Under the pieces are notes generated by a model, which had not been told where the DNA came from, searched no databases, and saw only the letters and a list, made by a program, of their open reading frames with translations. From an uncultured Thermoplasmatales archaeon (lineage in GTDB: Archaea; Thermoplasmatota; E2; DHVEG-1), in NCBI GenBank assembly GCA_964385215.1, contig CAYLOF010000001.1:1-27768 (forward strand): a DNA stretch of 27,768 bases. The letters run 5' to 3'. The position numbers were made by a program, and so were the translations under genes. Below are positions 2,819-26,515 of this stretch, one piece after another (position 1 is the stretch's first letter; every line of letters starts with the position of its first letter).

Positions 2819-3370
2819 ATGAAAATAAAATTAATAACAACCGGGATTTTTTTTACTTTGATTCTTGCCAGTTTAAGCGGATGTGTCGAGGAAAAAACAA
2901 GTGGAATAAATGTATCACTTAACACTCTTGCGTTAACTTTAGATGACATAGGTAAAGAATGTAAGGTTATTGATGAAACACATGAAACCGAACCATATAC
3001 TGTTGAAGAAGGCCTCATATTGGATGGTTGGTATGTGCTTGAGAAATATGAAATATGGTTTTCCTTTGGCGAATATGATGTAGCTCAAACTTTAGTTAAA
3101 TTAGATTCCAACGAAAAGGCAAGTGAATTTATTGAGGTTGTCGGGATAAATTTGAGTGGACAATTCCCAGAATCACAGACAGATTCCATAGGCGAAGACT
3201 TGTATTTTGGAAAAAATAATACCATTGGAAATTTGTCTATATATTTGTTATGCTTCAAAATTGAAAATGTGGTGGTCATATTATTTGGAACTGTTCCTAC
3301 AGAAGAAACACTTATAAATTATGCAAACATAATAGAAAATAATTTAAATGAAGCAACTACCAAAAATTAG
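2819..3370 (+). CDS. Hypothetical lipoprotein
   Basis: AGGTGA RBS, lipobox LSGC-VEE, acidic mature domain. Confidence 0.75.
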   Translation: MKIKLITTGIFFTLILASLSGCVEEKTSGINVSLNTLALTLDDIGKECKVIDETHETEPYTVEEGLILDGWYVLEKYEIWFSFGEYDVAQTLVKLDSNEKASEFIEVVGINLSGQFPESQTDSIGEDLYFGKNNTIGNLSIYLLCFKIENVVVILFGTVPTEETLINYANIIENNLNEATTKN

Positions 3371-3897: not shown

Positions 3898-3945
3898 TGA
3901 GATGTTTAAATATTATCCATTCATCTTAAACATGGAGTTAGACGT

Positions 3946-8090: not shown

Positions 8091-8146
8091 TAAAACCTTT
8101 AATATTCCAACGCCATAATAGAGCAAATATTTGGATGTGAAATACA

Positions 8147-9406
8147 ATGATAGTAAAAAAAAGACCGAAGAGATATCATCAAACTAAAAAAATAACTACT
8201 ATCATTTGTATAATCAGTTTACTCGCTACAGTTCCATTACTTAATGCGTCAATGGTGTATACTCTTACATGTAGTACTGATCATTCAGAATACTATCCTG
8301 GGGAGACTGTACAGATATCAGGCTATCTAAAAAATGATGGAAATGGGGTAAGCGGTTCAGTTTGTGTCGAAGTTAAATATGGCGGAGAAACGGTATTTTC
8401 TATTTGCATTTCAACTTCATCCAGTGGTTACTATGGCACGTTTTATACTGCAAATGGTTTGGGATACTATTCTGTTAAAGCTGAGGCTCATGACTATAGT
8501 GTTACAGCATATGATTCATTCAAGGTAGTATCGACTTCTGTAATTGCCGATGCCAATGGACCATATTATGGAGTTGTTGATCAACCCATACAGTTTGATG
8601 GAGGTGTTGATGGAGGAAAATCTCCACATACATGGCTTTGGATTTTTGGGGATGGTACCAATACATCAAGTGACAAAGATCCCGTATATACCTATTATTC
8701 GATAGGCAATTATACTGTTAGTTTAACCGTTCGTGACGATGGCGGGCACGAAGGTGAAGATCAAACCACTGTAACTATAACAAATGAGCTGGTAGCTGAT
8801 GCAAATGGTCCTTATGAAGGTCCACCAAACATATCAATTAGTTTCAAAGGACTAGCGTATGGTGGTTATCCACCATATTCATATGAATGGGATTTTGGTG
8901 ATGGCGATAGTTCAAACGAGCAAAACCCTGATTATAGCTACAGTTTGCTTGGTTCATATACTGTCAATTTAACAGTTACTGATGGAAAGGACATTCAGAC
9001 AACAGACTCAACAACTGTAGCTGTTGCTGAGAACTATCCACCAAATAAACCAAGCACTCCAAATGGCCCAACAAATGGGAAAGCCAATACTGAATACACA
9101 TATTCAAGTGATACCACTGATCCAAATCAAAACCAGATTTACTATCTATGGGACTGGGGAGATGGAAATACGAGTGGATGGCTTGGTCCTTATGAATCTG
9201 GAGTTATCGTAAATGCTTCATATATTTGGAGTGAAAAAGGAGATTATGAAATTAAAGTAAAGACTAAAGACGTATACGAAGCAGAAAGCGAATGGTCAGA
9301 TCCACTGCCGATCAGCATGCCAAAAAACAGAAACACACCATTCTTGCGATTTTTGCAAAATCACCTATATATATTTCCAATCTTGAGACAACTACTTGAA
9401 TTGTAA
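8147..9406 (+). CDS. Secreted PKD-domain surface protein with an amphipathic C-terminal tail
   Basis: Signal peptide; MG2/Ig-like N-terminal domain; two ADANGPY...W.FGDG..S...P.Y.Y..G.YTV.LTV PKD domains; a PP.KP...GP...WDWGDG PKD-like domain; tail MPKNRNTPFLRFLQNHLYIFPILRQLLEL. Confidence 0.85.
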   Translation: MIVKKRPKRYHQTKKITTIICIISLLATVPLLNASMVYTLTCSTDHSEYYPGETVQISGYLKNDGNGVSGSVCVEVKYGGETVFSICISTSSSGYYGTFYTANGLGYYSVKAEAHDYSVTAYDSFKVVSTSVIADANGPYYGVVDQPIQFDGGVDGGKSPHTWLWIFGDGTNTSSDKDPVYTYYSIGNYTVSLTVRDDGGHEGEDQTTVTITNELVADANGPYEGPPNISISFKGLAYGGYPPYSYEWDFGDGDSSNEQNPDYSYSLLGSYTVNLTVTDGKDIQTTDSTTVAVAENYPPNKPSTPNGPTNGKANTEYTYSSDTTDPNQNQIYYLWDWGDGNTSGWLGPYESGVIVNASYIWSEKGDYEIKVKTKDVYEAESEWSDPLPISMPKNRNTPFLRFLQNHLYIFPILRQLLEL

Positions 9407-9519: not shown

Positions 9520-11577
9520 TTGTTAAATAAAAGACCCAAGGAATATTTAGTTGTTGGTATTGCAATTCTGTTGATTGGACTTATATTTGGATCAACTGTA
9601 AATGTGTTGAGTGTTGGAATGAAACAAACATTTAACACACCTGTCACCAATAATTTATTAAGTGGATATACAGACATTTCTGTTGAAGAAGCTTGGACTC
9701 TGTTAAATGACACGTCCAATGGTCTTCAACTACCTATAGATGTTAGAACCGATGTAGAATGGGCAGGCGAACACATAGACATCCCTTCTCCTGAAAATCC
9801 AAGACATCATTGTGTTTGCGAATGGAGCGATGAAAGCATATTACAAGAGTTTATATCATTATATAAAGGTGAGGAGATTATTCTTTACTGCCTGTCTGGC
9901 GGCAGGAGTACTGATGCGGCAAATATTCTTGTTGATAATGGATTTAATGGAATAATCTATAATATGCTTGGTGGAATAACTGCATGGAAGAATGCTGGTT
10001 ATCCTACTATAGCTAATCAGCCGCCAGGTGCACCCGATATAACGGGCCCCATAACTGGAAAGGCAGGTGAAGAACAGGAATATACGATAGTTTCAACAGA
10101 TATTGAAGGTGACGACATATATTACTACATCAATTGGAGTGATGGCACCAATACAACATATATTGGCCCGTATGAATCTGATGAAGAAGTAAGCATAAGT
10201 CATACTTGGGAAGAAAAGGGAACATATATTATTAAAGCGAAGGCATGGGATTATTACCAAGCTGAAGGTGAATGGGGAACACTTGAAGTTAGTATGCCTG
10301 AAGATATGAGATCTGATCTATTATCACAATTATTTGAAAGATTAACTCAAAAATATCCTATTTTAAATAAATTTTTTTTTCAACAAACTTCCGCGCATTT
10401 AATTTATGGAACTGCAACATACAGTGATGACAGCTCTGCCGCAGGAGCACTAGTGGATGTTGTTAGTTCATTAGGTACTCTACGTACCTCTGTTTATTCT
10501 GGTGGAAACTGGCAAGTTGATTGCGGTGATCCTGGTCCAAATTGGCCTGACAGTACAGTGTTCACTGTTTATGCTACAGGTTGCTGTGGTCATCGCGGTT
10601 GGTCAGGAGAATCTTCAGGTATTGTAAGCGGCGAGTATAACGATATGGGAAATATTGTTATGTATCCAAACAGTGATCCAAATGCCCCAAGCATCCCTAA
10701 CGGGCCAATTGCACTGCATATAGGTGATTCTGGTACATACACTACAAATGCAACAGACCCTAACGATCTTCACGAAATAAGATATAAATTTGATTGGGAT
10801 GCTGAAGGATCTCATGACTATAGCAATTTCACAGAATTTGTGGATAATGGTATGCCTGCCAGTAAATCCCATTTTTGGAATGTTCCTGGCACCTATGTAG
10901 TAAAGGCTCAGGCCGAAGATGAATATGGCTATGAAAGCGATTGGTCAGAAGGTTTTACCGTAATTGTTTATGATGATGACACTCCTCCAGAGGTACCTGT
11001 TATAGATGGTCCCACCTCTGGCAAAAAAGAAAATGAATACACATATAACATCACAACAACCGATCAAGATGGCGATGTTGTCAAATATTTTGTTGACTGG
11101 GGCGATGGTACGGATAGTGGATGGGTTGGCCCATATGATTCTGGTGAGAAGATAACAGCGGCTCATGACTGGACTGAAAGAGGAGCATATGAAATTACAG
11201 TAAAAGCAAAAGACGTATGTGAAATCGAAAGTAATTGGTCAGAACCATTAGTTATGAATATCATAGGGCCAGAAATTGAAATAGGTGTTATAACTGGTGG
11301 GGCGTTCAGAATAAACGCCGTTATAAAAAATATTGGGGGAGGAGAGGCTACAGACGTTAATTGGAACATTACATTAAATGGTGGTGCAATATTTTCAGGT
11401 AAAACAACATCAGGTTTGATTGAAAGTATTCCTCCAGGGAATCAGGTGACAATAAGTTCAGATGTGATAACAGGCATAGGTAAAACAGTGGTAACAGTGG
11501 ATGTAAGCATTTATGAAGGGAATTCAGATGCAAAAGTTGTAGATGCTACTGTGCTTTTGTTTTTCATTTTGTTGTAG
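9520..11577 (+). CDS. Secreted rhodanese-domain / PKD-like multidomain protein with a shared C-terminal domain; apparent fusion of two genes
   Basis: Signal peptide; rhodanese IDVR...YCLSGGRS (Cys124)...MLGGITAW; three PKD-like units; internal tail-like motif at 10294-10380; carboxypeptidase-regulatory-like IYGTATYSD unit; C-terminal domain 11269-11577. Confidence 0.8.
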   Translation: MLNKRPKEYLVVGIAILLIGLIFGSTVNVLSVGMKQTFNTPVTNNLLSGYTDISVEEAWTLLNDTSNGLQLPIDVRTDVEWAGEHIDIPSPENPRHHCVCEWSDESILQEFISLYKGEEIILYCLSGGRSTDAANILVDNGFNGIIYNMLGGITAWKNAGYPTIANQPPGAPDITGPITGKAGEEQEYTIVSTDIEGDDIYYYINWSDGTNTTYIGPYESDEEVSISHTWEEKGTYIIKAKAWDYYQAEGEWGTLEVSMPEDMRSDLLSQLFERLTQKYPILNKFFFQQTSAHLIYGTATYSDDSSAAGALVDVVSSLGTLRTSVYSGGNWQVDCGDPGPNWPDSTVFTVYATGCCGHRGWSGESSGIVSGEYNDMGNIVMYPNSDPNAPSIPNGPIALHIGDSGTYTTNATDPNDLHEIRYKFDWDAEGSHDYSNFTEFVDNGMPASKSHFWNVPGTYVVKAQAEDEYGYESDWSEGFTVIVYDDDTPPEVPVIDGPTSGKKENEYTYNITTTDQDGDVVKYFVDWGDGTDSGWVGPYDSGEKITAAHDWTERGAYEITVKAKDVCEIESNWSEPLVMNIIGPEIEIGVITGGAFRINAVIKNIGGGEATDVNWNITLNGGAIFSGKTTSGLIESIPPGNQVTISSDVITGIGKTVVTVDVSIYEGNSDAKVVDATVLLFFILL

Positions 11578-11959: not shown

Positions 11960-14900
11960 TTAAGCATCTATTGGTTCTGGTGATGTCCACTCAGGACTAT
12001 ATACGATAAGATCTGGATCTCCGTATAGGCACTGAACTGTTGTCACAGTAAGAGATGAAGAACCGTACATTGACGTTGGATCTTTTGTTGTAAAATCTCG
12101 CAGATGACGCCAAACTTCATTAGAATATGCTAGGCCTATTGAAACACCATCAACCATAACACTATCAAAGACGATATTGTCCATTAAATCTTCCTGTGGA
12201 GTTAATCCCGATCCTGCATTACCAAAGAAGAAAGATGCTCCGTGATCAAGATATACCATTGGTCCAAACGCATCACCGGTTGTACATGAAAGATAGAATA
12301 TTACATTGCTTCCTAGATTTTCAAATAATTCGTCAGCATAGTCATAGTGAATAATGTCATACAAGGATGGTGGTTCAGCATTATACCAACTTCTTCCATT
12401 GTTTCTGACAATCTGCCAATTATCATATTTTGAATAACCACGCCATGCATCCCACCATATTTGTTCTGGGTAGTTACAATGTTCTGTTTGGTCAAATTGT
12501 GCAGATGTTCCACTTCCACCAGTTCCATGTCCTGCATAATACATAGCACTTGCACCTTCATTTAAACGTTGAAGATGAGCATCCCATAAACAATGACCCT
12601 CGTAGTTTCTAAAATGAGATCCAAATGATTTCTTAACACTTCTACTTGAGTAAGCTGGTGTTGTCTCGTGATCGTTAGTTGTCCATTGACCACCATCTGC
12701 AAAGTTCATAAGTTGAGAAGTTGTGACATCACGATTCGGGTTTGCAAAGATTACTGCAGGATATAATATATTTCTTAATACCATTGCAGAAGTATACGCT
12801 GGTGTGATTCCTACAATGTGTCCTGCATATGAGTTATTGCCCAACATAACTGAGTGAGCCGGGATATATATGTCCTTTCGAGGTGCTACGAAACAGTATC
12901 CTTCTTTTCCAGATTGGTCAAGCCCTAGGCTATTGATATAATTGTATATTCCATCATGCAATTCTTCATTCCAATATCTTTTTGCATCCATTCCCAAAGG
13001 CGGAAGTCCTCCTGATGATCCTCCAGAGATTGCATATAAAAATGCGTCAAAGAGGGATTTTATAGACCATTCTCCTTCTCCAGCTAAGGGTTCATTGTGA
13101 TCTGGAAGATGTCCAGTTGATCTCGAACCATGATAATAATCTCCTGACCAAAGTCTCCAAGTTTCTATTCTGTCAGCCACACCTGCTGGATTTTCCGGTG
13201 CCTCTCCTATTCTAAGAACTGGAGAGCAATGATATGCAGCAAGCATTGCAGCAGGGGCAAAGTATCCATCTCCGGATTTAATTGAAGTTATGGTAATATA
13301 ATTTTCAGAGTTGTCATATCCTTTGACATAGTCAACAATATCTTGCATAGTCGTTAGATCTGCGTCAATGGTTGGTAAATCATTTTTCACATCCGCTCCA
13401 ATATTGCCTCTTTCAACAAATATGACTTTGCTAACGCCAAGCTGACTTAATGCATTAGATGTTGCAGATGGAATGCTGTCCGAATTGACGTACAATAATG
13501 GAGCATGTTCCTGCGATGCAATAACTGCTGCATTAGCTGCAGATATTGATGCATCCGCTCGCGAATGGGTTGCTCGTAATTCCGCCGTAATTGTATATGT
13601 CACATCTGAACCCTCAGAATTTCTTGGTACTACTATTGCTGTCCATTTCCCCTCATCAGGATGAAGTGCTTCTACTGAAAAATCAAGATGTGGTTCAGGA
13701 TTCCAAGTTCTCCATGGATTGTCCACTGGGTTTTCTAATCCATTCCATTCATGTATTGGATTTACAGGTCCATTCCATTGAGGAATATCAGGTGATATTA
13801 GATATCCTTCAGGATCAATAAGAAATACAATCAAATCAGATGGAGAGTCAGTTTGAGTTTTAACACTTAGTACAGATTCTGAATCATCAACATTGAGGGT
13901 ATACCGATCTCCCGCAAACTTTTTCACAGTGATATGGGACCAATCATCAGATGTTATATCAGAGCCTGTTCCCCAAATTCCAGGTTCTGCAATCGGATAA
14001 TAAACATCTATGCCATCTCCACTACCGTCATATGGAACGGGCCACCAATCCCCTCCAAAATTCATAAACTTGGGGAAATAACATGTTAAGAAATTCGCGT
14101 CGTCGTTGGCATGATATCCTGTTATATCATGTATTTCAACTTGAATTGCTCCCCATTTTTCATTCAAAAACATAGTATATTGGAGTTCAGTATTAAAAGC
14201 AGGATCGCTACTTTGAATATTTTCGACTTCCACTTCCCGTTTTAATGTTGTTGTTTTTTCAACTAACGTTGTAACACTATCTTCGAATTCACTGCCATCT
14301 ACTGCAATAACTGCAAGATCAGATGAGGTCCAACCTTGAGTTGCTATTTCAGCAGCTGCTGTTACTGGGTCAGAAGGTACTGTGTATTCAACTGCTACCT
14401 TTTCATGCAACGAAAGGTATGCATTCCAATCATCTATTAGATATTGTGTCGTGTCGTCAACCGTTCCTCTGTCAGCATCCACTCCAAACCAATTTGTAGG
14501 CGTATCATCGCCCTCATAGAAAATTGGGGCTAAATATCTTTGTCCACCTTCGTAATAGTTACAAGCGGGTACTGATGAAAGATAGGCATATTCGTCATTA
14601 TTGCTATTTGGATCATTAGTTATTATGAAACTTTTTGCAATAGGGGTGATATCAGGTTGAGGTATTGGAGCAGGGGGCGATGGCGCGCTTGATTCAACTG
14701 CAAAGTTCATCTTGTATGCACCAGATCCATATGTGTAGTATTTCCAATCAACCGGTTGAGGGATATCTGTGTACCCTGGGAAAATATCAATTTTAACTCG
14801 CCATTCTCCCGACTCGTCAGCAGGATAAAGCAATTCATCATCATAGTAGTAATCTTCTTCAAAAACCAATTCTCCACTAGGATTATACAACGAAATATCA

Positions 14901-15721
14901 AAGTCGGATAGGTAGGCAAGTTTTTTCATTTCTAAAGTAAAGTGGATGCCTTGGCCAGAATTAATATTGAATTTATACCAATCTTGCTCATCATTCATAT
15001 CAACGTATCCGTAATACTCACCAGGGCTTATTGTAGTGGCACCACTAAACGAGTTACCAGCATCACTTCCGGTGCCAGCATCATTTTGACTAGATAAAGA
15101 AACATCAAAAGTATACTCGCCATCACCTGAATCGCTACCTGGAACTATTGCCATATAATAATATCCACTATATTCTGCTACGTATGTAATTGATTCTGTA
15201 GTACTTGGTCCAGTAGAAGTGGCCATTTCATCTCCGGCATCATTATGAAGATAAAGATCATAGTTGTCAGTTGCAAAAAATGACATTTCGATAGTTTGAC
15301 CTTCACACACAGAGAAGAAATACCAATCTTCGTCACCACTAGATGTAATCTTCCCAGTTCTGCCTCTGCCAGGAGTATTATCAATCATTTCACCTGGGTA
15401 TAAAGCAGTAGCTCGAGAGATCTTATCTCCTGCATCCCTTCGGGTTCCTGCATCATCAAAGTCATCGCCATCAAGATTTAGCGGCTCCTCTGAATAAGGA
15501 TCTTGAATGATATATTTATTGTCAAGCCAAAATGGACCTAAATCTATAGTATCTTTGGTAGGTTCAGCAATTGGGTCACGGAAGATTGTTGCATCTTCAT
15601 TGACAAGCAAACTTTTTTCCTTTTCCACTCCTATCGAACCTGCAGGAACAAGAAACATTGTTCCAAGCAGCAGTATTGTTAAAACAACAGCGTCTATTTT
15701 TATGTTTTTTCTATATTTCAA
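11960..15721 (-). CDS. Large secreted clan CD (gingipain/C25-like) cysteine peptidase with N-terminal PPC-like repeats and CWB2-like repeats
   Basis: TTG start with AGGGGG RBS; signal peptide; two DAG...DAG..S.AT.I/LxPGE...D.D.Y.F PPC-like units; CWB2-like segments; catalytic-type YYAGHG (His1065) and YLSCTTG (Cys1146); terminal YGDP motif as in C25 proteins. Confidence 0.7.
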   Translation of the reverse strand: MKYRKNIKIDAVVLTILLLGTMFLVPAGSIGVEKEKSLLVNEDATIFRDPIAEPTKDTIDLGPFWLDNKYIIQDPYSEEPLNLDGDDFDDAGTRRDAGDKISRATALYPGEMIDNTPGRGRTGKITSSGDEDWYFFSVCEGQTIEMSFFATDNYDLYLHNDAGDEMATSTGPSTTESITYVAEYSGYYYMAIVPGSDSGDGEYTFDVSLSSQNDAGTGSDAGNSFSGATTISPGEYYGYVDMNDEQDWYKFNINSGQGIHFTLEMKKLAYLSDFDISLYNPSGELVFEEDYYYDDELLYPADESGEWRVKIDIFPGYTDIPQPVDWKYYTYGSGAYKMNFAVESSAPSPPAPIPQPDITPIAKSFIITNDPNSNNDEYAYLSSVPACNYYEGGQRYLAPIFYEGDDTPTNWFGVDADRGTVDDTTQYLIDDWNAYLSLHEKVAVEYTVPSDPVTAAAEIATQGWTSSDLAVIAVDGSEFEDSVTTLVEKTTTLKREVEVENIQSSDPAFNTELQYTMFLNEKWGAIQVEIHDITGYHANDDANFLTCYFPKFMNFGGDWWPVPYDGSGDGIDVYYPIAEPGIWGTGSDITSDDWSHITVKKFAGDRYTLNVDDSESVLSVKTQTDSPSDLIVFLIDPEGYLISPDIPQWNGPVNPIHEWNGLENPVDNPWRTWNPEPHLDFSVEALHPDEGKWTAIVVPRNSEGSDVTYTITAELRATHSRADASISAANAAVIASQEHAPLLYVNSDSIPSATSNALSQLGVSKVIFVERGNIGADVKNDLPTIDADLTTMQDIVDYVKGYDNSENYITITSIKSGDGYFAPAAMLAAYHCSPVLRIGEAPENPAGVADRIETWRLWSGDYYHGSRSTGHLPDHNEPLAGEGEWSIKSLFDAFLYAISGGSSGGLPPLGMDAKRYWNEELHDGIYNYINSLGLDQSGKEGYCFVAPRKDIYIPAHSVMLGNNSYAGHIVGITPAYTSAMVLRNILYPAVIFANPNRDVTTSQLMNFADGGQWTTNDHETTPAYSSRSVKKSFGSHFRNYEGHCLWDAHLQRLNEGASAMYYAGHGTGGSGTSAQFDQTEHCNYPEQIWWDAWRGYSKYDNWQIVRNNGRSWYNAEPPSLYDIIHYDYADELFENLGSNVIFYLSCTTGDAFGPMVYLDHGASFFFGNAGSGLTPQEDLMDNIVFDSVMVDGVSIGLAYSNEVWRHLRDFTTKDPTSMYGSSSLTVTTVQCLYGDPDLIVYSPEWTSPEPIDA

Positions 15722-16117: not shown

Positions 16118-16218
16118 ATGAATAAATCAAAAAAGGCAAAAATATTTATTGAGGCAGCTTTAGTGATTGTTGTTACATTGGCTTTACTTATGCCAGCTTC
16201 AGCAGTAGTCACTAACAA
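16071..16218 (+). repeat. 5' constant block, copy 1 (promoter + RBS + signal peptide); copy 2 at 17841..17988
   Basis: 148-nt ungapped alignment, 8 mismatches by manual count, offset 1770. Confidence 0.95.
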
Positions 16219-17713
16219 TGTAGACAATGCCTATGGTTTTGAGAGAGTTGATAACCAAGGCAATTTAAAGAAAAAAACAATAGCCAATACTTTTGCAGGA
16301 GATGACATTTGGGCGACACCATTCCAAGGTGATGATTATATACCAGCAATTACTAAAGATTTAGATGGTAATGTTGTAATATCCTGGACAAATGAACAGA
16401 GTTTCAGTGAATCATATTTTGGAATAAGTTATTCTGATGATCCATCTGATGCGCAAACATGGTATGATAATGGATTGGTTCTAACACTCTCTGGAAATGA
16501 TTATGGTTTTGATACTGCACTAATCGTAGGACCTGAATCTGATGATTTCAAGGGTCTTGTTGGTGTCTATTTCTCTTTAGCTGATGATTTAGCTGGCTAT
16601 TATGAAATTGAAGACATCACTGGAGATTTTGGAGATTGGCCAATTTATTCCTGGACTGATTTTGGACAAGATTCTTATTACTCATGTATTGCGGATGGTG
16701 GTTTTGTTCAGGGAGGATATTATCCTGACATGTTTGGACCAATGATATTTCATATATGTTTAAATGATCTATGTGGAACCATACCTGAATGTCCAGTTTT
16801 TGGCCATATTGATATTCGCAATGATGGTAGTGGCGTATTTTTCTATGATTGCCAGGAATTTGAACAGACAGCACCAGCCGCAGACCCTGATTACTTTATG
16901 GTTGTAGATAGAGAGATATATCATACAGTAGTCTATAATCATGAAACCAATGACGTGATATGGAAAAAAGTCGACCCAACTGTTGAACATGATTATGAAT
17001 ACACTCCATTCCAGAGTACCATTGGAACAGGAACAAACCCTGCTATTGCAGGCTATGGCACAAATGTAGCTGTTGTTTATACAGATGAAGGACAGGTAAA
17101 ATGTGCACATAGTAGTGATGATGGAGAAACATGGGACACTTCACCAGTAGCTTCAGGAGGATTTTCAGACATATGTGCAGTTGGAACAACGCTTTATGTT
17201 ACATACATCTCTAGTGGAAATTTATTTAAAGTTACATCAGAGGATGGTGGAGCAACCTGGAGTCAAGCAGAGCAAATAAACGATGTCGATGGAACTGTTG
17301 TTGCAATGGAAAATTCTGTTGATATACATGAAGCAGGAATTGTATGGGTAGATGAAAGAGGCGAAGATTGGGATATCTATTATGAAGGACTAGTGAGCAT
17401 ACCACAACCAAAAATTGAAATAGATCAGATAGCCGGAGGTATCGGTGTCAGTGCAGTAGTTACAAACAATGGAGATGTCGATGCAACAGATGTAGAGTGG
17501 AGCATCACATTAGATGGTACAGTATTCCTTGGCGCTGAGAAAACTGACACAATTTCAAGCATTGCAGTTGGTGAATCCGTCCCAATTAAATCAGGATTCC
17601 CATTAGGCTTTGGTCCTATAGATATAACAATAACTGCACAAAGTGCTGAAGGACCATCTGATACAGAAACAGCAAGTGGAAAGTTACTTCTATTCTTTAT
17701 AACTGGATTATAA
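16118..17713 (+). CDS. Secreted BNR/Asp-box (sialidase-like propeller) protein with shared C-terminal domain, paralogue A
   Basis: Signal peptide ending PASA; Asp-boxes SSDDGETW and SEDGGATW; IVWVDER..DWDIYY; C-terminal domain 17408-17713 ending LLLFFITGL. Confidence 0.8.
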   Translation: MNKSKKAKIFIEAALVIVVTLALLMPASAVVTNNVDNAYGFERVDNQGNLKKKTIANTFAGDDIWATPFQGDDYIPAITKDLDGNVVISWTNEQSFSESYFGISYSDDPSDAQTWYDNGLVLTLSGNDYGFDTALIVGPESDDFKGLVGVYFSLADDLAGYYEIEDITGDFGDWPIYSWTDFGQDSYYSCIADGGFVQGGYYPDMFGPMIFHICLNDLCGTIPECPVFGHIDIRNDGSGVFFYDCQEFEQTAPAADPDYFMVVDREIYHTVVYNHETNDVIWKKVDPTVEHDYEYTPFQSTIGTGTNPAIAGYGTNVAVVYTDEGQVKCAHSSDDGETWDTSPVASGGFSDICAVGTTLYVTYISSGNLFKVTSEDGGATWSQAEQINDVDGTVVAMENSVDIHEAGIVWVDERGEDWDIYYEGLVSIPQPKIEIDQIAGGIGVSAVVTNNGDVDATDVEWSITLDGTVFLGAEKTDTISSIAVGESVPIKSGFPLGFGPIDITITAQSAEGPSDTETASGKLLLFFITGL

Positions 17714-17887: not shown

Positions 17888-19516
17888 ATGAATAAAGCAA
17901 AAAAGGCAAAAATATTTATTGAGGCAGCTTTAGTGGTTGTTGTTACACTGGCTTTAATTATGCCAGCTTCAGCAGTAGTCACTAACAAAACAACGGATAA
18001 TTCAACATCCATTAAAATAGTTCCAACGAATACACCGATTTCAAATGCAGGATCATTAGCTGCAGGCAATATTTTAATAACGGCAGACAATCCTGATGAA
18101 GATGATCAAAACCCAAAGATACTAAAGGACGGTGGAGGAAACATCCTTGTTGTTTATGAAAAAGTTAAGGACACCTTCACCATCGCCAGTGAGTTAGTTT
18201 TTACAGACGATGATGGAGCTACATGGTATTTGGCATATGATTTTGATTCCACAAATTGGGACTCTGGTTCCGGTGAGCTTATATCAGGGGACATATCATA
18301 CAATCCAGCTATTGATAAAACTTTCTGGTGTGCAATAGATGCAATTGGCGATATGTACAATCTAAGAATGACTTGGTTGGAGGGAAATATTGTCAATGCT
18401 GGAGACGTTACGATATATGGTGTTTCTGGTACAGGTGCAACAGAACATTATGAGACATCATGTACTTGTGTGTCTGAATGGGCAATCACTCCATATATTT
18501 GCGATGAACCTGATTATGATCTTTATCGTTGCCCTGGCCTAGGATATTGGGATATCGATTTTGAGCATCCAGATATGGGTGGATTTTATTATGATGGAGG
18601 ATCAATCCTTGAAACCACTCCCGCAAGCAATATCGAGGCTGAAACTGGTGTAGAACGCATGTACATGGTAATGCAAGTTGATGATAAGATTGCTTTCAAG
18701 GCAACTACTACTGATCCGGAACTTCTTCAAACCAATGGCGGCGGACCTGGAGGAATGGACCAATATGCAGATATCGAATGCTGGCCATGGCAAAATTGGA
18801 TTGCAACAGAAAACGCAGAAGATCCTGATGTTTCAGGTGATGCTGGAAAAGTCTGTGTTGTCTATTCACAGGACGGAATGGTAAAATGTGCATATAGTAG
18901 CGATGTTGTAAAGGAATATGAAGAAGAAATTGAATTCCAAGTATCTGAGATAGATGCGGGGAGCTATCCAACTGTTTATATGTCTGGAAATGACGTATAC
19001 GTCGGATACGTAGAGAGTGGAAACCTTTACTTCATAAAATCTACTGACGGTGGAGCAACATGGGGCACTCCTGTACAAAAGAACGAAATAGATGGAACTG
19101 TTGTTGGACAATATGGTACTTGTCACATCGATTCTGTTGGTATTGTTTGGACTGACTCTAGAAACGGAAACTATGATGTTTATTATGATGTAACTCAATA
19201 CATCCCACAACCAAAAATAGACATTGAACAAATATCCGGTGGTTTAGGAGTTAGCGCAGTTGTAACAAACAATGGAGATGCTGATGCTACAAATGTAGAG
19301 TGGAGTATCACATTAGATGGTACAGTATTTCTTGGCGCTGAGAAAACTGACACAATTTCAAGCATTGCAGTTGGCGAATCCGTCCCAATTAAATCAGGAT
19401 TCCCATTAGGTTTTGGCCCTATAGATGTAACAATAACTGCACAAAGTGCTGAAGGACCATCTGATACAGAAACAGCAAGTGGAAAGTTACTTCTATTCTT
19501 TATAACTGGATTATGA
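17888..19516 (+). CDS. Secreted BNR/Asp-box propeller protein with shared C-terminal domain, paralogue B
   Basis: Signal peptide nearly identical to paralogue A; Asp-boxes TDDDGATW and STDGGATW; IVWTDSRNGNYDVYY; C-terminal domain 19211-19516. Confidence 0.8.
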   Translation: MNKAKKAKIFIEAALVVVVTLALIMPASAVVTNKTTDNSTSIKIVPTNTPISNAGSLAAGNILITADNPDEDDQNPKILKDGGGNILVVYEKVKDTFTIASELVFTDDDGATWYLAYDFDSTNWDSGSGELISGDISYNPAIDKTFWCAIDAIGDMYNLRMTWLEGNIVNAGDVTIYGVSGTGATEHYETSCTCVSEWAITPYICDEPDYDLYRCPGLGYWDIDFEHPDMGGFYYDGGSILETTPASNIEAETGVERMYMVMQVDDKIAFKATTTDPELLQTNGGGPGGMDQYADIECWPWQNWIATENAEDPDVSGDAGKVCVVYSQDGMVKCAYSSDVVKEYEEEIEFQVSEIDAGSYPTVYMSGNDVYVGYVESGNLYFIKSTDGGATWGTPVQKNEIDGTVVGQYGTCHIDSVGIVWTDSRNGNYDVYYDVTQYIPQPKIDIEQISGGLGVSAVVTNNGDADATNVEWSITLDGTVFLGAEKTDTISSIAVGESVPIKSGFPLGFGPIDVTITAQSAEGPSDTETASGKLLLFFITGL

Positions 19517-19565: not shown

Positions 19566-19742
19566 TAATAAATTTATTTAATAAAATTCTGTTATTATTT
19601 TATATTGCTTATATTAAACAAAACATTTAAGTAATGGAAAATAGATATCTTCCATAACATTGGAGGAAAAAAGTTATAGATTGTAAAGTGAAGAAAAATA
19701 TGAGTATTTGTTAGATACATACAGACAAAATTGGTGAAAAAT

Positions 19743-21320
19743 ATGAAGAAAAAAAATATTGGAATATATGCAATAACATTGATTATTGCAGGGCTGATGA
19801 TTGCAGTTTCTGCTACTGCTATAGTGCAGAAACCAAACGAGGAAAAAAGATACATTAACTGGAATAGAACTGAGGCTTGTATATCTGGAGTAGAAATGAC
19901 AGAAATAATGCCTGCAAAAGAACTCAAACATGCACCAGGACAACTTAGTGCTGATCCATTGTATAATGGCGCCTATCCAGATGTTGCAAGTGGAGGATCT
20001 AACATTTGTCTCGGTTTTGATAGTTTAGAGACTCCAGGTACAGCATTTACATTCTCACAAGACGGCGGTGCATCCTGGCATGAAAGTGCATATGGTTGGG
20101 AATTAGGAGAATCAATGTGGCCCTCAGTTGACTTTTCAGCAGGTAATCGATTCTATGGAACAGTTTCCCCAGATTGGTCAACAAATGGTTATGTGACTCA
20201 ATGTGATTTTGTGGATATAACTGACCCAGAAACATGGGTTGCTGGTACTTGGGACTGGTCATCATATGATATGATGGAGTTTGAAGGAATATCTATTGCA
20301 GCAATGGATGATAGCCTAGAAGAATGGAGATGGGGATTCATCACAATGTCGGGCTACAATGGATATAACGACCCCGCTGCAGATGGTTGTCCATATGTGA
20401 TGTATGCAACTGATGATGGCTATGCTACAATTAGCTGGCTAATAGATAGTGACTCAGGAGATATCCTTGGTGGCTGTGAAAATGCAGCTAGTGAAATAGA
20501 TCCAGTTCGCTACCATAATTATGCAATATGGGAACGATATAATGATGACGAGGAAAGTTACAACTTAGAATTCCGTAAGGATGATTCTGCTGCAGAAGCA
20601 GGTGAAAGCGGATTTGTTACAGCAGGAGAACTAGTAACCTCTGAAAATAGCCGTTATCCTGATATTAGCGCCTATGATAGCAATGTCATTATTGTTTCAG
20701 AAGCAGATGGAGATATAGTCTGCTATTATTCTAATAATGGACTGAACAATTTCGATGCAATTTTTGTAGCATCCACAACAGATGACGAAACATTTCCGAG
20801 GATAACCCATACAGGAGAAGATGAAGCAATTTGCACCTTTATTAAAAATGAAAATATCTACTACTCCATGACAGATGATGGAGGAGCTACATGGGACGAA
20901 CCTACAATGATTAATGATGTAGAAGGACAAGTAACAGAAGATTACCTTTCATCAGGCGTCTGTGAATTGGGTGCATGTTTCGGCGGCAATGATGATATAG
21001 TTTATTATGGGGCAGTAGGGGCCAAACCTATTATTACAATTGAAGGGTTTACTGGCGGTCTTGGTGCAACTGCAACCATAAAGAACGTAGGGACTGCTGA
21101 TGCAACAAATGTGGAATGCTCCATAACTGTGACAGGCGGAATTTTAGGGATGGTAAACAAAACAGTCACTGAAACAATATCAGGTATTGCAGTAGACGAA
21201 GAGGTAACCATAAGTACAGGAATCTTTTTGGGACTTGGTGCAATAGAAATAACCGCTACCGCAGGATCGTCAAGTGATTCCACAACAGGTACACAGATAC
21301 TGATCTATACAATGCTATAA
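19743..21320 (+). CDS. Secreted BNR/Asp-box propeller protein with divergent shared C-terminal domain, paralogue C
   Basis: GGTGA RBS before ATG 19743 (ORF track starts at GTG 19731); signal peptide ending SATA; SQDGGASW and TDDGGATW Asp-boxes; C-terminal domain 21027-21320 ending QILIYTML. Confidence 0.8.
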   Translation: MKKKNIGIYAITLIIAGLMIAVSATAIVQKPNEEKRYINWNRTEACISGVEMTEIMPAKELKHAPGQLSADPLYNGAYPDVASGGSNICLGFDSLETPGTAFTFSQDGGASWHESAYGWELGESMWPSVDFSAGNRFYGTVSPDWSTNGYVTQCDFVDITDPETWVAGTWDWSSYDMMEFEGISIAAMDDSLEEWRWGFITMSGYNGYNDPAADGCPYVMYATDDGYATISWLIDSDSGDILGGCENAASEIDPVRYHNYAIWERYNDDEESYNLEFRKDDSAAEAGESGFVTAGELVTSENSRYPDISAYDSNVIIVSEADGDIVCYYSNNGLNNFDAIFVASTTDDETFPRITHTGEDEAICTFIKNENIYYSMTDDGGATWDEPTMINDVEGQVTEDYLSSGVCELGACFGGNDDIVYYGAVGAKPIITIEGFTGGLGATATIKNVGTADATNVECSITVTGGILGMVNKTVTETISGIAVDEEVTISTGIFLGLGAIEITATAGSSSDSTTGTQILIYTML

Positions 21321-21504: not shown

Positions 21505-23091
21505 TTACCAAGGCCAAAGATGATGCCAAGATCCTTGCAAATATAGTTCAATGGAAATTGATGTAAATTCAATTTCACCAGTTGTCTCTAAATTCCAGTC
21601 AACAGGAGGCCAGACCGTCCAATCAAGACGAAAATCTTCGGCTTTGAACATTTCAGATACCGTTCTTATTCCAAGGTCCTCTCCCTGTATCAAAAGGTCA
21701 ATTTCATTCAATGGCTGCCAGTTTGTATCGTATTCTAAATATCCTGTAATATTGGTGTACCATGAAATTGAGATGTCCTCAGCTGCTGGCATAGCGTTAA
21801 GTTTTGCTACCCACTCGCCGATATAAAACTCAATATCAATGTTAAATGATGGATTCTTTTTTACAACAAATTCGCCCGGATTCGTCAGATTCCATTGAGC
21901 AGTCATATCGATATCTTCAAGATTACGTATGGTTAGGTTAACAGTTGGGTTTGTTAAAGAATCTTTGAGGATAAAATCAGTCCCATCGGAATCTACAACA
22001 ATGGAATATGAGCCATTTTCTCGTGTTGGTGTCCATTCAGCATTGATTTTTCGTGGAGTATTTTTAATAGTAGCATATTTACATACTCCCATTTCAGTTG
22101 ATGTAACAAGCACCTCAACATCATACATTTCATCACTTTCATACAGAAAGCTACCACCTCCATCGATCAAAGGTGTTAGCGCAAGAGAAAAGGATAGTTC
22201 CTTAGGAATTTCATCAATTGTAAAGACTGTTTCTTTTTCCTCTTCATCCTTTATTCTTGTAAAATTAACAGTGATTTTCGCATCAGTAGACGATTCTCGA
22301 ATAAATTGATATTTCCATTCACCTTGATTTCGTGTTGAAGAGATAGTCATTTGTGTTTCTATGGCGGGTTCAAAATCAAAAGAAAAAATCTTCTCAGTGT
22401 CTTCACTGGTATGTTTCGCATAGAATACAATTTGTTTGCCTTCTCTTCCAGTTAAATATTCTGGGTTCACATAAAATTTCAATCCATTTGTCTGTTCAGT
22501 GGGATTGAAAAATAACATACAGGATATTCGTATGGAGTTAGGAATTTCGTTTCCTTCATTAGATGGAGACCAATATCCCATCTCTAGGTTATTGTTTCCA
22601 AAATCCATAGTAAACTTGAAGTTTTTATCTTTTATTTCTTCACCAATTCGCTCTATATTTACAGTGAAAAGAAGACCAAAAATAAGATTTGGATCTGGCA
22701 ATATATATGGAAGTATCAGGAACTGTACCCGGATATCAGCACCATTAATTCCTGTGTTTTCATTATCATCAACATCAATGTCATTAAAAAATCCAAAATA
22801 TACTTCCTTTGTTTTTTCTACATCATTACATGTTGTATGTATGACACTGGTAAAAATCCCACTTTGCTTAAGATTTTTGCCATACCCTCTATAAATATTT
22901 TTTATGTTATCTCTAAAATTAAAAGATTGTTTCATTTTTTCAGAGAATTTTCCATCAGCATTTTCTAATAATTTTTTAGTATACGGCTCATGATGTCCGA
23001 TGCTTGCCATTCCAGATGGTAGTATGGTCCCAATCAAAAAAAACACAACCAAAATGACCAATATGTTTTCCAATATTTTGTTTTTCTTCAT
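21505..23091 (-). CDS. Secreted beta-rich hypothetical protein with ~45-58-aa internal repeats
   Basis: GAGGTGA RBS; signal peptide; DIDVDDNENTG acidic motif; recurring TIxN/ExPxxIxxxW units; Trp-rich end WHHLWPW. Confidence 0.75.
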   Translation of the reverse strand: MKKNKILENILVILVVFFLIGTILPSGMASIGHHEPYTKKLLENADGKFSEKMKQSFNFRDNIKNIYRGYGKNLKQSGIFTSVIHTTCNDVEKTKEVYFGFFNDIDVDDNENTGINGADIRVQFLILPYILPDPNLIFGLLFTVNIERIGEEIKDKNFKFTMDFGNNNLEMGYWSPSNEGNEIPNSIRISCMLFFNPTEQTNGLKFYVNPEYLTGREGKQIVFYAKHTSEDTEKIFSFDFEPAIETQMTISSTRNQGEWKYQFIRESSTDAKITVNFTRIKDEEEKETVFTIDEIPKELSFSLALTPLIDGGGSFLYESDEMYDVEVLVTSTEMGVCKYATIKNTPRKINAEWTPTRENGSYSIVVDSDGTDFILKDSLTNPTVNLTIRNLEDIDMTAQWNLTNPGEFVVKKNPSFNIDIEFYIGEWVAKLNAMPAAEDISISWYTNITGYLEYDTNWQPLNEIDLLIQGEDLGIRTVSEMFKAEDFRLDWTVWPPVDWNLETTGEIEFTSISIELYLQGSWHHLWPW

Positions 23092-23220: not shown

Positions 23221-24450
23221 CTATTTTGATAAACTACCCCACGTTTTCTTTAGCATGAAGGCAAGAACCAACGCACATAGGGCGATACTCAGTCCGAACC
23301 CATATGTTTTACCCACTTTGGCATTTGTTTTGAAGAAACCTAAAGGATACAAATCTATGCTTTCCCCATTAGGTAATATGCCCTCATACGGCACGTCTCC
23401 AATACCGTCACCATCTGCATCTGTTCCGTTATAATCGCTCCAATAATTGCCAATTTTGTTTTTATACCATTGATTGTCAAAAGTATCATATGCACTTTTA
23501 TTGTTTAATGAAAAGTTATTTAGATAAAGCGTATTAAAATAAGATTTACAGCATATCCAACAGCCAAACATTTTGCTCGAATGTATTGCATTTTCAAAGA
23601 CCATGTTGTCATTGGAGTGTATAATGTAAATCCCATAATCGTTATTTCCTACAAAATTTTCGGTAACAGTATTATTTGACGCATAGTTTAAACGTATCCC
23701 AAAGATGCTATTAGAAACACTAGTATTTATGATTGAACAAGTTGAAGAGTACCCAAGCACAATGCCTTGATCTGCATTTGATATGGTTATATCTTGTATT
23801 GTAAGGTTAGTACAGTTTGATATGATTACTTGGCCAGGCTCATCAGGTGAAATTGTTTTGTTAACCATGTTTTTGTAGAAGTAAAGCTTTTTTCCATTTA
23901 CTGTGTTGTTTTTGATAATATGGGTATTCCAACCAGTAATGTTGCCTACGATGTTTATTCCGTCATTTATAAATGTATTATTCTCAAAAACATTGTTTGA
24001 TGAATGGTATAAATAGATGCCCCAATCGCTGTTGTTTTCAATGATATTATCTGTTATTGCATTGTTGTCCGATTCAATATTTATGCCAGAATAACCCTTG
24101 CCCTTAGAATTTCTTACAGTAAATCTCTTAAAAGTACATCCATCTGCTGTTATAGACACAGTTTCGCCACTTTCATTGTATTCTATTATTGTAGATGATT
24201 TTTCTTCCCCGATGAGATGTACTGTTTTATATAGTCTAATGCTCTCACGATAGATACCATTAGAAACATATATGATGTCACCTTGTTGTGCATTATTTAT
24301 GGCGTCCTGTATGGACAGAAATTTTCCATCTGTCTCTCCTCCTACGTATATGGCATTTTTATCTGCAGCCAAACAATTATTAGCGGGAATTAAAAAGAGC
24401 ATAAGTAACAAAAGTGTAATTGATATTTCAATGAATTTTTTGTTATTCAT
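23221..24450 (-). CDS. Secreted beta-helix (NosD/CASH-like) protein with a PGF-CTERM-like membrane anchor
   Basis: Signal peptide; SIQDAINNAQQGDIIYVSNGIYRE cap; coils; GNYWSDY.GTDADGDGIGDVPY; tail KTYGF + hydrophobic helix + KK. Confidence 0.85.
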   Translation of the reverse strand: MNNKKFIEISITLLLLMLFLIPANNCLAADKNAIYVGGETDGKFLSIQDAINNAQQGDIIYVSNGIYRESIRLYKTVHLIGEEKSSTIIEYNESGETVSITADGCTFKRFTVRNSKGKGYSGINIESDNNAITDNIIENNSDWGIYLYHSSNNVFENNTFINDGINIVGNITGWNTHIIKNNTVNGKKLYFYKNMVNKTISPDEPGQVIISNCTNLTIQDITISNADQGIVLGYSSTCSIINTSVSNSIFGIRLNYASNNTVTENFVGNNDYGIYIIHSNDNMVFENAIHSSKMFGCWICCKSYFNTLYLNNFSLNNKSAYDTFDNQWYKNKIGNYWSDYNGTDADGDGIGDVPYEGILPNGESIDLYPLGFFKTNAKVGKTYGFGLSIALCALVLAFMLKKTWGSLSK

Positions 24451-24616: not shown

Positions 24617-26515
24617 ATGAAAGAAACTTTGCCAATACTAATAGTAGGAATTTTAATTATAAGTGGACTTGGAGCAGTTGCTATACCAGATAGTGAACCA
24701 GAAGTGTTTGTAAAAGCAGATACAATATCTCTTTCAGAGCCAGTTTTTGAAGTGAGTGGAGAATATCTATCTGTAGATTTTGAAGAATCGACATCTATGC
24801 TTTTGGATGAGGGAAAACCTGTGATACCGTCCGTGTCTAAGACATTTGTCTTTCCTCTTGGAACAAAAATTGTTAATACAGATATTAGCTCTGATATTAA
24901 GGAGTATGATCTTTCCATGAAGATCCAACCTTCACCAAAACCTGTTCCATCGGCCAGTAATCTTTTGTCAAAGATGTCGGTAGAAGTGATTCCAGATGAA
25001 TTGGTGTATTCAAGCGAAGATATGTATCCTTCTGAATTTTATTCCATAAAAATGGGGGCAGGATTAAAGGATAAAGAACATGTTCTTTATTTTACAGTTA
25101 AATGTTATGCTCAATATTCTCCAGCAACAGATGTACTAATCATTCCAGAAAATATTGAGATTAAGATTGAATACAATCTACCAAAAACTTCTCTCCTAAC
25201 TGCTGATGAATATGATATGCTTATCATTACTGACAAGAAGTTTGAATCACAGCTACAACCATTGGTGAATCACAAAAACAACATTGGTGTAAAAACAATA
25301 CTTGAAACAACTGATAAGATTTACTCAAACTATAATGGCCGTGACGATCCTGAAGATATTAAATTACGTATTAAGGATGCCATCGAAGAATGGGGCATTG
25401 AATATGTGCTCCTTGCAGGCGGTCGCAAAGGCCAAACATTTGAGTGGTACGTGCCCGACCGAAGAACAAATCTTGACGATGCATCAGGCTATGAAACGGG
25501 TTATTCCAGTGATTTATATTATGCAGATATTTACAAATATGATGGTAGTTTTGACGATTGGGACTCCAATGGTAACGGTGTGTTTGCCGAATTTTCTTCT
25601 TTTGGCGTTAATAAAGATATCATTGATTACTATCCTGATGTTTATGTTGGAAGGATACCTCTCCGATATTCGTGGGAAGCAGATATTGCCGTGAATAAAA
25701 TTTTAACCTATGAAAATTCAGCTGATGACTCATGGTTTAAAAATGCATATGTGGTATCTGGAGACACTTCTCCTCCTGCTCGAGGAAACGTTGAAGAGGG
25801 AGTCTATGAAGGTGAGCTTTCTACGGCTATCACTGTAGATCTGTTAGAAGATATCGGCTTTAATGTAGAGAAACTTTGGACTTCTGGAACATGGGATTGT
25901 AAAGAGGATGTTACTAATGCAATAAGTTCTGGTTCTGGATTTATTCATTTTGCTGGACATGGGAATCCTTCAAGTTGGGTTAATTTCCTTCCTGATGCTC
26001 AGACTGAAGAGGAGAAGGTCGATGGTTTTGGACTATCAGATATGAGAAAATATTCAAATGGCAATAAACTTCCGATTGTCATTGTTGGTGGTTGTCATAA
26101 TGCTCAATTCAATGTAACAATGCAATTTCTATTAGAAGGTCTTCTTGAACATGGAATGGAGTATCTTAATTATGAATTTTGGTTTATGGAATGGGTACCA
26201 TCTGACACCTGCTCTTGGTTCATGTTAGAAGGCGGCGGCGGAGCTATTGCTTCAATTGGGAACACTGGTCTTGGTTACGGATATGTCAACGAATTTTGCA
26301 CTGAGGGTCTTGGGGGTTGGATCAATCCGCGATTCTTCCATGCATATGCTAGTCAAAACAAAGAGGTTCTTGGAGAAGCACATAGTCAGGCAATTGTAGA
26401 TTATCTTAACATTGTGTTTGGAGAAGTAGCACCTGGAAATATGGATGTGGATAGAAAAACTATCGAAGAATGGGAACTCTTAGGTGATCCTAGCTTGAAG
26501 ATTGGAGGTATATAA
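24617..26515 (+). CDS. Secreted peptidase family C25 (gingipain-like) cysteine peptidase with propeptide
   Basis: Signal peptide; GKPVIP propeptide; YDMLIIT...LVNHK...GV; YVLLAG; SDLYYAD; DVYVGRIP; FAGHG (His448); VGGCHNAQF (Cys493); GAIASIG; W.LLGDPSLKI. Confidence 0.9.
   Translation: MKETLPILIVGILIISGLGAVAIPDSEPEVFVKADTISLSEPVFEVSGEYLSVDFEESTSMLLDEGKPVIPSVSKTFVFPLGTKIVNTDISSDIKEYDLSMKIQPSPKPVPSASNLLSKMSVEVIPDELVYSSEDMYPSEFYSIKMGAGLKDKEHVLYFTVKCYAQYSPATDVLIIPENIEIKIEYNLPKTSLLTADEYDMLIITDKKFESQLQPLVNHKNNIGVKTILETTDKIYSNYNGRDDPEDIKLRIKDAIEEWGIEYVLLAGGRKGQTFEWYVPDRRTNLDDASGYETGYSSDLYYADIYKYDGSFDDWDSNGNGVFAEFSSFGVNKDIIDYYPDVYVGRIPLRYSWEADIAVNKILTYENSADDSWFKNAYVVSGDTSPPARGNVEEGVYEGELSTAITVDLLEDIGFNVEKLWTSGTWDCKEDVTNAISSGSGFIHFAGHGNPSSWVNFLPDAQTEEEKVDGFGLSDMRKYSNGNKLPIVIVGGCHNAQFNVTMQFLLEGLLEHGMEYLNYEFWFMEWVPSDTCSWFMLEGGGGAIASIGNTGLGYGYVNEFCTEGLGGWINPRFFHAYASQNKEVLGEAHSQAIVDYLNIVFGEVAPGNMDVDRKTIEEWELLGDPSLKIGGI

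Follow-up and report, generated by a model that had tools for sequence, protein, structure and literature searches.

Several described systems resemble the locus analyzed here, a 685-amino-acid (aa) open reading frame (ORF) with a TTG start at 9520..11577 (+) in the program-made ORF list for a stretch of 27,768 nucleotides (nt) from an uncultured Thermoplasmatales archaeon (GenBank assembly GCA_964385215.1, contig CAYLOF010000001.1, positions 1 to 27,768). We refer to this whole stretch as the window. In mid-protein, the ORF carries a segment that resembles the terminal tail of the upstream gene's product and contains a run of nine T (T9). Among the systems of interest are Rosetta-stone fusions, or domain shuffling, in PKD-rich surface proteins. 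In Thermus thermophilus dnaX (tau/gamma), transcriptional slippage on an A9 tract gives a truncated product. The PGF-CTERM/archaeosortase system represents the C-terminal protein-sorting signals of archaea. Transcriptional slippage has been reviewed in general (PMC5009743), and many bacteria select against runs of nine A or T, which are prone to slippage (PMC1088944). Archaea also possess oligo-T and aCPSF1-assisted terminators: in vitro, T5-T6 suffices for efficient termination by Pyrococcus RNA polymerase (PMC2253867), and in Methanococcus the number of U-tracts correlates with termination efficiency in vivo (PMC8716108).

We found that ORF 9520..11577 is an ordinary gene fusion that retains the relic of a tail. 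The original prediction, made from the letters of the window, had called it a fused gene that could yield short and long isoforms; both halves do stand alone in relatives and, among the origins it had offered, a simple fusion by deletion or recombination is the one that the evidence favors. Our best explanation as a whole, which we consider probable, is that of a genuine, fixed fusion in which the relic serves as a decaying linker, T9 is plain phenylalanine coding and the full-length product is the one under selection. As with Rosetta-stone fusions, the halves are separate in related genomes within the same neighborhood, the downstream half lacks a signal peptide in the window, the intact ORF is kept in its clade and C-terminal cassettes are exchanged. 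Unlike such fusions, the one in the window keeps almost the whole upstream C-terminal tail as an internal segment.

Homologue searches returned three classes of protein: full-length fused proteins, found only at identities of at least 78% (P0002-P0004); many rhodanese-(PKD)-tail proteins of ~400 aa that cover only the N part; and proteins of 431-555 aa that cover only the C part. A scan of a genome collection gave only distant relatives (39-40% identity), in Thermoplasmatota and Thermoplasmatales metagenome-assembled genomes. The N part had been described as complete-looking on its own, and L008 contains a stand-alone version of it, a 295-aa rhodanese-PKD-tail gene (7569-8456, minus) that is 59.6% identical to window residues 1-286, with an alignment that stops 8 residues short of its stop codon. 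The separate C-half gene of L008 (62% identical) is adjacent and convergent to this gene, and in L004/L005 the halves are separate genes ~5 kb apart in a neighborhood syntenic with the window. Orthologues split into two genes, which the original prediction had suggested looking for, are therefore present in L008 and in L004/L005.

Stand-alone C-half proteins (P0008, P0009, P0012 and P0017; 431-448 aa) have their own signal peptides, and the tblastn alignment of the C half begins at window S291, corresponding to residue 51 of P0012. The start codon and signal peptide of the downstream gene are gone from the fused ORF, in which the first in-frame start of the C half is a GTG at 10453, with none earlier. 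The motif QQTSA-HLIYG had been taken for the remnant of a signal-peptidase site, a suggestion that does not hold: TS(A/S/E)H(L/Y)IYG is conserved within the mature part of the stand-alone proteins, ~15 residues past the signal-peptide core, where the stand-alone homologues read (T/V/I)S(S/E)H(L/Y)IYG. The sequence across the fusion junction reads …KFFFQQTSAHLIYGTATYSDDSSAAGALVDVVSSLGTLR.

Fused proteins form four clusters with 11 sequences at 75-91% identity. Ten of these are full length (681-686 aa); the remaining one, a fragment of 376 aa, includes the junction as well. The full-length orthologues in the comparison are 78-91% identical to the window protein. At the DNA level, the gene is represented on 8 distinct contigs from different ENA/JGI samples, all in frame (8/8), and identities in the C half run from 73% to 93%. 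Because the fused form is narrowly distributed and both separate forms are widespread, we infer that the fusion is the derived state.

The layout of the fused protein, all on the + strand, begins with an N-terminal signal/anchor helix followed by a rhodanese domain (aa 56-159, 9685..9996; Pfam PF00581, E=4e-11) and a first PKD domain (aa 166-258, 10015..10293, ending ...TLEVS; Pfam PKD match 182-247). The relic C-terminal tail, MPEDMRSDLLSQLFERLTQKYPILNKFFFQQT (aa 259-290, 10294..10389; located by the tail hidden Markov model (HMM) and the L008 alignment), comes next and would be the present inter-domain linker. It is followed by a beta-sandwich that starts SAHLIYG and is the first domain of the former downstream gene (aa 291-385, 10390..10674; tblastn and AlphaFold2), by second and third PKD-like domains (aa 386-585, 10675..11274; Pfam PKD_4 489-572, internal tblastn repeats and the model) and by a C-terminal CARDB-like beta-sandwich that ends ATVLLFFILL (11275..11574; Pfam and the model).

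AlphaFold2 modeled the fused protein with a mean predicted local distance difference test (pLDDT) score of 83.5. The first PKD domain shares 55% identity with the PKD domain of solved structure 4xed, which derives from a Thermoplasmatales archaeon single-cell genome. For the beta-sandwich at aa 291-385, strands were modeled at 294-382 with pLDDT 85-90; a Pfam scan gave no match there, and Foldseek with the whole model against the PDB returned generic multi-Ig matches and PKD 4xed only, leaving the 291-385 fold unassigned. The CARDB match at the C-terminal domain scores 19 bits, below the 22.7 cut-off. The last residues of the protein are modeled as beta strands (669-680 and 682-684, pLDDT above 90), and on this basis, together with the weak CARDB match, we reject the C-terminal LLFFILL as a membrane anchor or tag; the proposed swap of one sorting tag for another accordingly lacks its second tag. 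A CARDB-like C-terminal module of ~100 aa is common to ORFs 9520..11577, 16118..17713, 17888..19516 and 19731..21320, and these modules end in short hydrophobic runs (LLFFILL, LLLFFITGL and ILIYTML).

In the origin that we propose, a complete secreted rhodanese-PKD protein, nearly its whole tail included, would have been fused in frame with the mature portion of another secreted protein, probably by recombination or deletion. The first gene would have lost the last ~6-8 residues of its tail and its stop codon, and the second its start codon, its signal peptide and ~15 further residues, with the junction between T290 and S291. The old tail would then have turned into a short, partly helical, decaying linker. 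T9 would be TTT TTT TTT coding for three hydrophobic tail positions in an AT-rich genome (30-41% G+C in the window), and the selected product would be the full-length protein, exported via its single N-terminal signal/anchor. There is a short similarity between the end of the stand-alone L008 tail (...QTIYVYLG, then the stop) and the start of the C half (...SAHLIYG), and it is a matter of speculation that this could have guided illegitimate recombination.

Members of this family exchange parts by recombination. In the fused protein P0004 (L003 5001-7049), the last 160 aa are 86% identical to stand-alone P0009 and 51% to fused P0001, the window protein, and the preceding 230 aa are 90% identical to P0001 and 62% to P0009. 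This pattern indicates that P0004 is a mosaic, with cassette exchange by recombination as its probable source. The closest relatives of the window C half, P0005-P0007 (and L008 6001-7512), have a different N-terminal piece, which in P0005-P0007 consists of a signal peptide and an apparently decayed NosD N-terminus. After this piece, P0005-P0007 continue with YS(F/L)LEQFFLSYH(A/S)SHLIYG, which can be aligned with YPILNKFFFQQTSAHLIYG residue by residue; in P0005-P0007 and L008 6001-7512, the end of the relic tail is matched by ...LLEQFFLSYHSSHLIYG, with a T6 run within it. The alignments suggest that the part upstream of the junction has been replaced repeatedly.

The comparison piece for the relic lies just upstream, where gene 8147..9406 terminates in the true tail SMPKNRNTPFLRFLQNHLYIFPILRQLLEL (9314..9403, +) followed by its stop. 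A tail of this kind is shared by 47 homologues of the fused protein, in the form [MTI]P[KR]NK, then 4-8 residues, then FLxRFLExxPxxFP[IL]LRxLLGL; a variant among the 47 reads ...FLERLIERFPILEQIL with 8-14 further residues. The onset of the tail coincides exactly with the end of the PKD fold: the 4xed construct ends ...TLEVTMPK, and the window protein has ...TLEVS and then the relic. True tails start ...SMP[KR] and have two invariant prolines ~19 residues apart, and the relic keeps MP(260)...YP(280)IL. Its score with the tail HMM, built from the 47 terminal tails, is 9.6 bits (1-11 in the fused orthologues), the median for terminal tails being 35.7. The stand-alone 295-aa protein of L008 ends ...MPKNKTINPFLLFLERLIERFPILEQILQTIYVYLG before its stop, with an MP-to-PIL spacing of 24 residues as in the window relic. 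Because this protein aligns through its own tail with equal spacing, the relic is a degenerate copy of a real tail. The resemblance between the mid-protein stretch and a terminal tail that the original prediction had noticed is thus homology, the internal copy having degenerated.

The relic is in decay. Its second proline, a residue without exception in 31 true tails, has become a histidine in L013/P0126/P0127, and the aromatic residue preceding it is a cysteine in L014. Mean identity among six orthologues is 77% for the relic and 85-89% for the flanking domains. In the AlphaFold2 model, the relic forms two low-confidence helices (264-278 and 281-286) between well-folded domains.

The tail family itself is large. 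A profile made from an alignment of the 31 true tails (profile A1) and searched against 1.84 billion representative proteins matched 2031 clusters at E<=1e-3, of which 236 reached E<=1e-10. In the best 150 of the 2031 matches, the match ended 0-18 residues from the C-terminus in every case (150/150), unlike the relic, which ends 398 residues ahead of the C-terminus. No Pfam or NCBIfam model matched three tail sequences, even at E<=10. Like PGF-CTERM, the tail is short, conserved and strictly C-terminal on many secreted proteins of one lineage; unlike PGF-CTERM, it has no transmembrane stretch with a basic cluster and takes the form of an amphipathic helix-Pro-helix after 'MPKNK'. Judged by these features, it is a candidate for an uncurated signal that anchors or sorts secreted proteins in Thermoplasmatota-like archaea.

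Internal tails are rare: none occurs among the best 150 matches of profile A1, and we saw one other case, P0107 (879 aa). There, an independent internal tail, SMPKNKKAPVIKHYQCFPLFNRLLSQ (residues 390-414), separates a NosD-PKD part from additional PKD domains, and a true tail closes the protein. In L008 8513-10159 (minus), the protein continues past a typical tail (...FLENHPYMFPLLRQLLGS) for 26 residues, as though the stop codon had been lost or the frame had shifted right where the tail ends. Other endings also occur in the lineage: ORF 23221..24450 (minus) ends ...YGFGLSIALCALVLAFMLKK... and L004 5146-5868 ends ...TPGFEIFLIFIATVSTIILLYRKNKI before its stop, both of which we take, on our own reading and with no model run on either, to resemble PGF-CTERM-type anchors. 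If that reading holds, the lineage would use at least two kinds of C-terminal ending.

As had been noted, the T9 tract at 10372-10380 falls at the end of the internal tail, where it is read in frame as FFF (TTT TTT TTT, F285-F287), three codons 5' of the inferred junction. The manual translations of the shifted frames offered in the original prediction were also correct. Loss of one T gives ...FFFNKLPRI and a TAA stop at 10400..10402 (293 aa), and gain of one T gives ...FFFSTNFRAFNLWNCNIQ and a TGA stop at 10425..10427 (302 aa), so that the tract has the makings of a slippage site, namely a homopolymer of at least ~9 A or T with a defined shifted-frame product in either direction. Absence of the tract from orthologues had been named as an outcome that would speak against a switch; the fused orthologues do carry it, at lengths of T8-T11 (T9 in the window and L014; T10 in L001, L003, L017 and L018; T11 in L002; T8 in L013). 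These differences stem from substitutions in the preceding codon (AAA/GAT/AAT/ATT) or the first Phe codon, with no indels; in L013, F285 is replaced by Ile (ATT TTT TTT), which gives T8.

Codon usage accounts for the run. TTT makes up 73% of the Phe codons in the window, and synonymous shuffles of the window genes gave 1.3 expected sense-strand runs of T>=9 where 1 was observed; once FFF is given, T9 is no more than chance. In a six-gene codon alignment, 8 of the 13 fully conserved Phe columns are all-TTT and, because of this, the all-TTT state at the junction columns, which background alone would produce with a frequency of about 0.2-0.4, is no sign of DNA-level selection. Nucleotide conservation of the tract beyond what the protein requires was not seen.

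Signals that could accompany a switch were also sought at the RNA level. Folding of 10330-10470 gave z = -0.46, with the only stem starting 28 nt 3' of the tract, and an Rfam scan of the window returned no family. For -1 ribosomal frameshifting, U UUU UUU is a slippery sequence, yet there is no stable stem-loop or pseudoknot at 5-9 nt. Like archaeal oligo-T terminators, the tract has at least five T on the non-template strand, comparable to the T7-T9 tracts past four stops in the window; unlike them, it is not placed past a stop codon, lying in frame 1195 nt (~1.2 kb) before one, and it is a single tract, whereas the real terminators of the window have a second T run. Like dnaX, the locus combines a nine-base homopolymer inside a gene with nearby stops in both alternative frames and a short N-terminal-domain protein as the outcome. 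Unlike dnaX, the tract is U and not A in the mRNA, the host is an archaeon in which oligo-T is also a termination signal, and conservation of the tract is explained by the protein sequence. None of the indirect tests that we ran gave positive evidence for a switch role of the T tract.

Two further roles for the tract region were rejected. T9 is not a relic of the upstream gene's terminator, given that T runs in relatives lie 15-30 nt past the tail stop and that FFF aligns with hydrophobic positions of the tail (after PIL, PILEQ-IL-QT in the tail and PILNK-FFF-QQT in the window). A candidate internal archaeal promoter, TTTAAATA at 10362-10369, fits the TATA consensus, which is also found 34-53 nt ahead of the starts of genes 3946, 6405, 9520 and 24617, but it is conserved in no orthologue and has no start codon or signal peptide after it. 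Elsewhere in the window, TTTAWATA boxes at 3905, 6358, 9479 and 24564 (+) have their ends 34-46 nt upstream of ORFs 3946, 6405, 9520 and 24617; the window contains 16 matches to this sequence where 9.6 are expected, and the boxes are likely archaeal TATA boxes.

Some observations weigh against a purely coding role for the tract and a relic free of constraint. Sense-strand T5 runs number 36 where synonymous shuffles predict 46.8 (a count as low or lower in a fraction of 0.02 of the shuffles), and for T6 runs the figures are 8 and 15.1 (0.006), with no such depletion of A runs in the window genes. FF dipeptides are coded TTTTTT in only 7 of 21 cases, despite the 73% TTT, and T7-T9 tracts lie 19-32 nt past the stops of ORFs 11960(-), 16118, 17888 and 19731. 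Despite this avoidance of T runs, every fused orthologue keeps its T8-T11 tract. The tract therefore resembles a terminator signal within a gene, from which some truncated transcripts are likely and a minor short product is possible. The relic, for its part, is still 77% conserved among orthologues, so some constraint remains.

The depletion of T runs is consistent with oligo-T termination having shaped codon choice in the window, and some premature termination or slippage at the tract is physically plausible on these grounds. Sense T8 runs occur at 2847-2854 (ORF 2819..3370, codon 10) and at 23036-23043 (ORF 21505..23091, minus, codon 17), both in signal-peptide codons near the 5' end. Because these two ordinary genes carry them, long T runs are evidently tolerated inside window genes, and because the coding sequence 3' of the tract is conserved at 75-93% identity, read-through must be the rule, with no sign of selection for a short product.

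The alternative that survives best, although we think it unlikely, is a gene with two products, in which the U8-U11 tract makes the polymerase terminate or slip and an extra short rhodanese-PKD-tail protein restores the ancestral output. The tract is conserved in the fused orthologues, and even longer in some, and the alternative frames stop within 6-15 codons to give proteins of 293 or 302 aa with the architecture of the 295-aa stand-alone homologue. The placement of T7-T9 tracts after genes and the avoidance of sense T5-T6 fit as well, as do the stopping of an archaeal polymerase at T5-T6 in vitro (PMC2253867), the correlation of U-tracts with efficiency in vivo (PMC8716108) and the slippage-prone nature of runs of nine A or T in bacteria (PMC1088944). 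However, codon conservation in the tract is at background level, one lineage has IFF (T8), so that the residues are changeable, and the two sense T8 runs in ordinary signal-peptide codons show that such runs can occur with no special function. A polymerase that stopped within the tract would moreover leave a non-stop mRNA, the fold of 10330-10470 offers no stimulatory structure, and a degenerate relic that has lost an invariant proline in one lineage is unexpected for the functional tail of a short product. Somewhat more doubtful again is the specific form of this idea in which T8-T11 is a leaky intragenic terminator and/or slippage site and the tail of the short protein, once again terminal, is active as an anchoring or sorting signal. 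If true, one gene would give two proteins, and the output of two genes would have been kept after fusion.

We regard it as improbable that the internal tail is still recognized and the precursor cut, in the manner of a polyprotein, into two mature proteins. In favor of this idea, the tail is widespread, strictly C-terminal and signal-like with invariant prolines, the relic keeps MP...ERL...YPIL and its 77% conservation, and the model places it in an exposed, low-confidence linker; but processing of the terminal tails is itself an assumption, the relic scores far under true tails, the invariant proline is lost in L013/P0126/P0127 and known C-terminal sorting signals need a terminal position.

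Phase variation, in which replication slippage would toggle the C half between cells or strains, was among the possibilities raised in the original prediction and is very improbable. It draws on an 8-11-base homopolymer in mid-gene whose length differs between orthologues, yet the frame is kept in each of the 8 contigs and 11 protein versions, where indel alleles in and out of frame would be expected, and the length differences trace to third-position changes in the codon before the tract (AAA/GAT/AAT/ATT) or to F to I, not to indels. Among homologue-search matches from 5.8 billion clusters, there was no truncated variant of ~290 aa at ~80-100% identity. An artefact, whether a chimera or a homopolymer-length error joining two genes, is refuted despite the error-prone nature of homopolymers and the metagenome-type contig, since the 8 contigs from different samples are all in frame, separate assemblies of several ENA and JGI samples arrived at this architecture with flanking codons that differ, and a frameshift would leave the C half without a start codon or signal peptide (first in-frame start, GTG 10453).

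The fixed fusion with a decaying tail relic lies within a row of genes for secreted proteins, including NosD/beta-helix, PKD-rich, C25 gingipain-like peptidase and PPC-domain proteins. ORF 24617..26515 is a C25 (gingipain-type) peptidase with a propeptide (E=3e-58), and ORF 11960..15721 (minus) is a PPC-domain protein of 1253 aa; both agree with the lifestyle of extracellular protein degradation that has been described for MBG-D/Thermoprofundales archaea. A Thermoplasmatota archaeon of this MBG-D/Thermoprofundales type is the likely source of the window (for context, PMC6461988). Six consecutive small proteins (ORFs 105, 2819, 3388, 3946, 4989 and 5785) have signal peptides that end in a lipobox-like (S/T)GC (LSGC, FSGC, LTGC), which suggests lipid-anchored archaeal surface proteins. 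ORFs 16118..17713 and 17888..19516 are tandem paralogues whose last ~60 residues differ at one residue and whose first 38 nt past the stop are identical, a stretch that takes in an oligo-T tract (T9 and T7); their near-identical ends point to recent duplication or gene conversion.

For transcription in these archaea, the fused gene is a natural test case for polymerase read-through of a long intragenic T tract, and it illustrates that a homopolymer in mid-gene, even beside a domain boundary, is not necessarily a switch. The fusion itself is of little importance, beyond being a clean, datable case of the modular rebuilding of surface proteins, by fusion and cassette exchange, in uncultured sediment archaea. 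More valuable is the tail family that it brought into view, which is large, strictly C-terminal and without a Pfam or NCBIfam model, and which marks the secreted proteins of this lineage.

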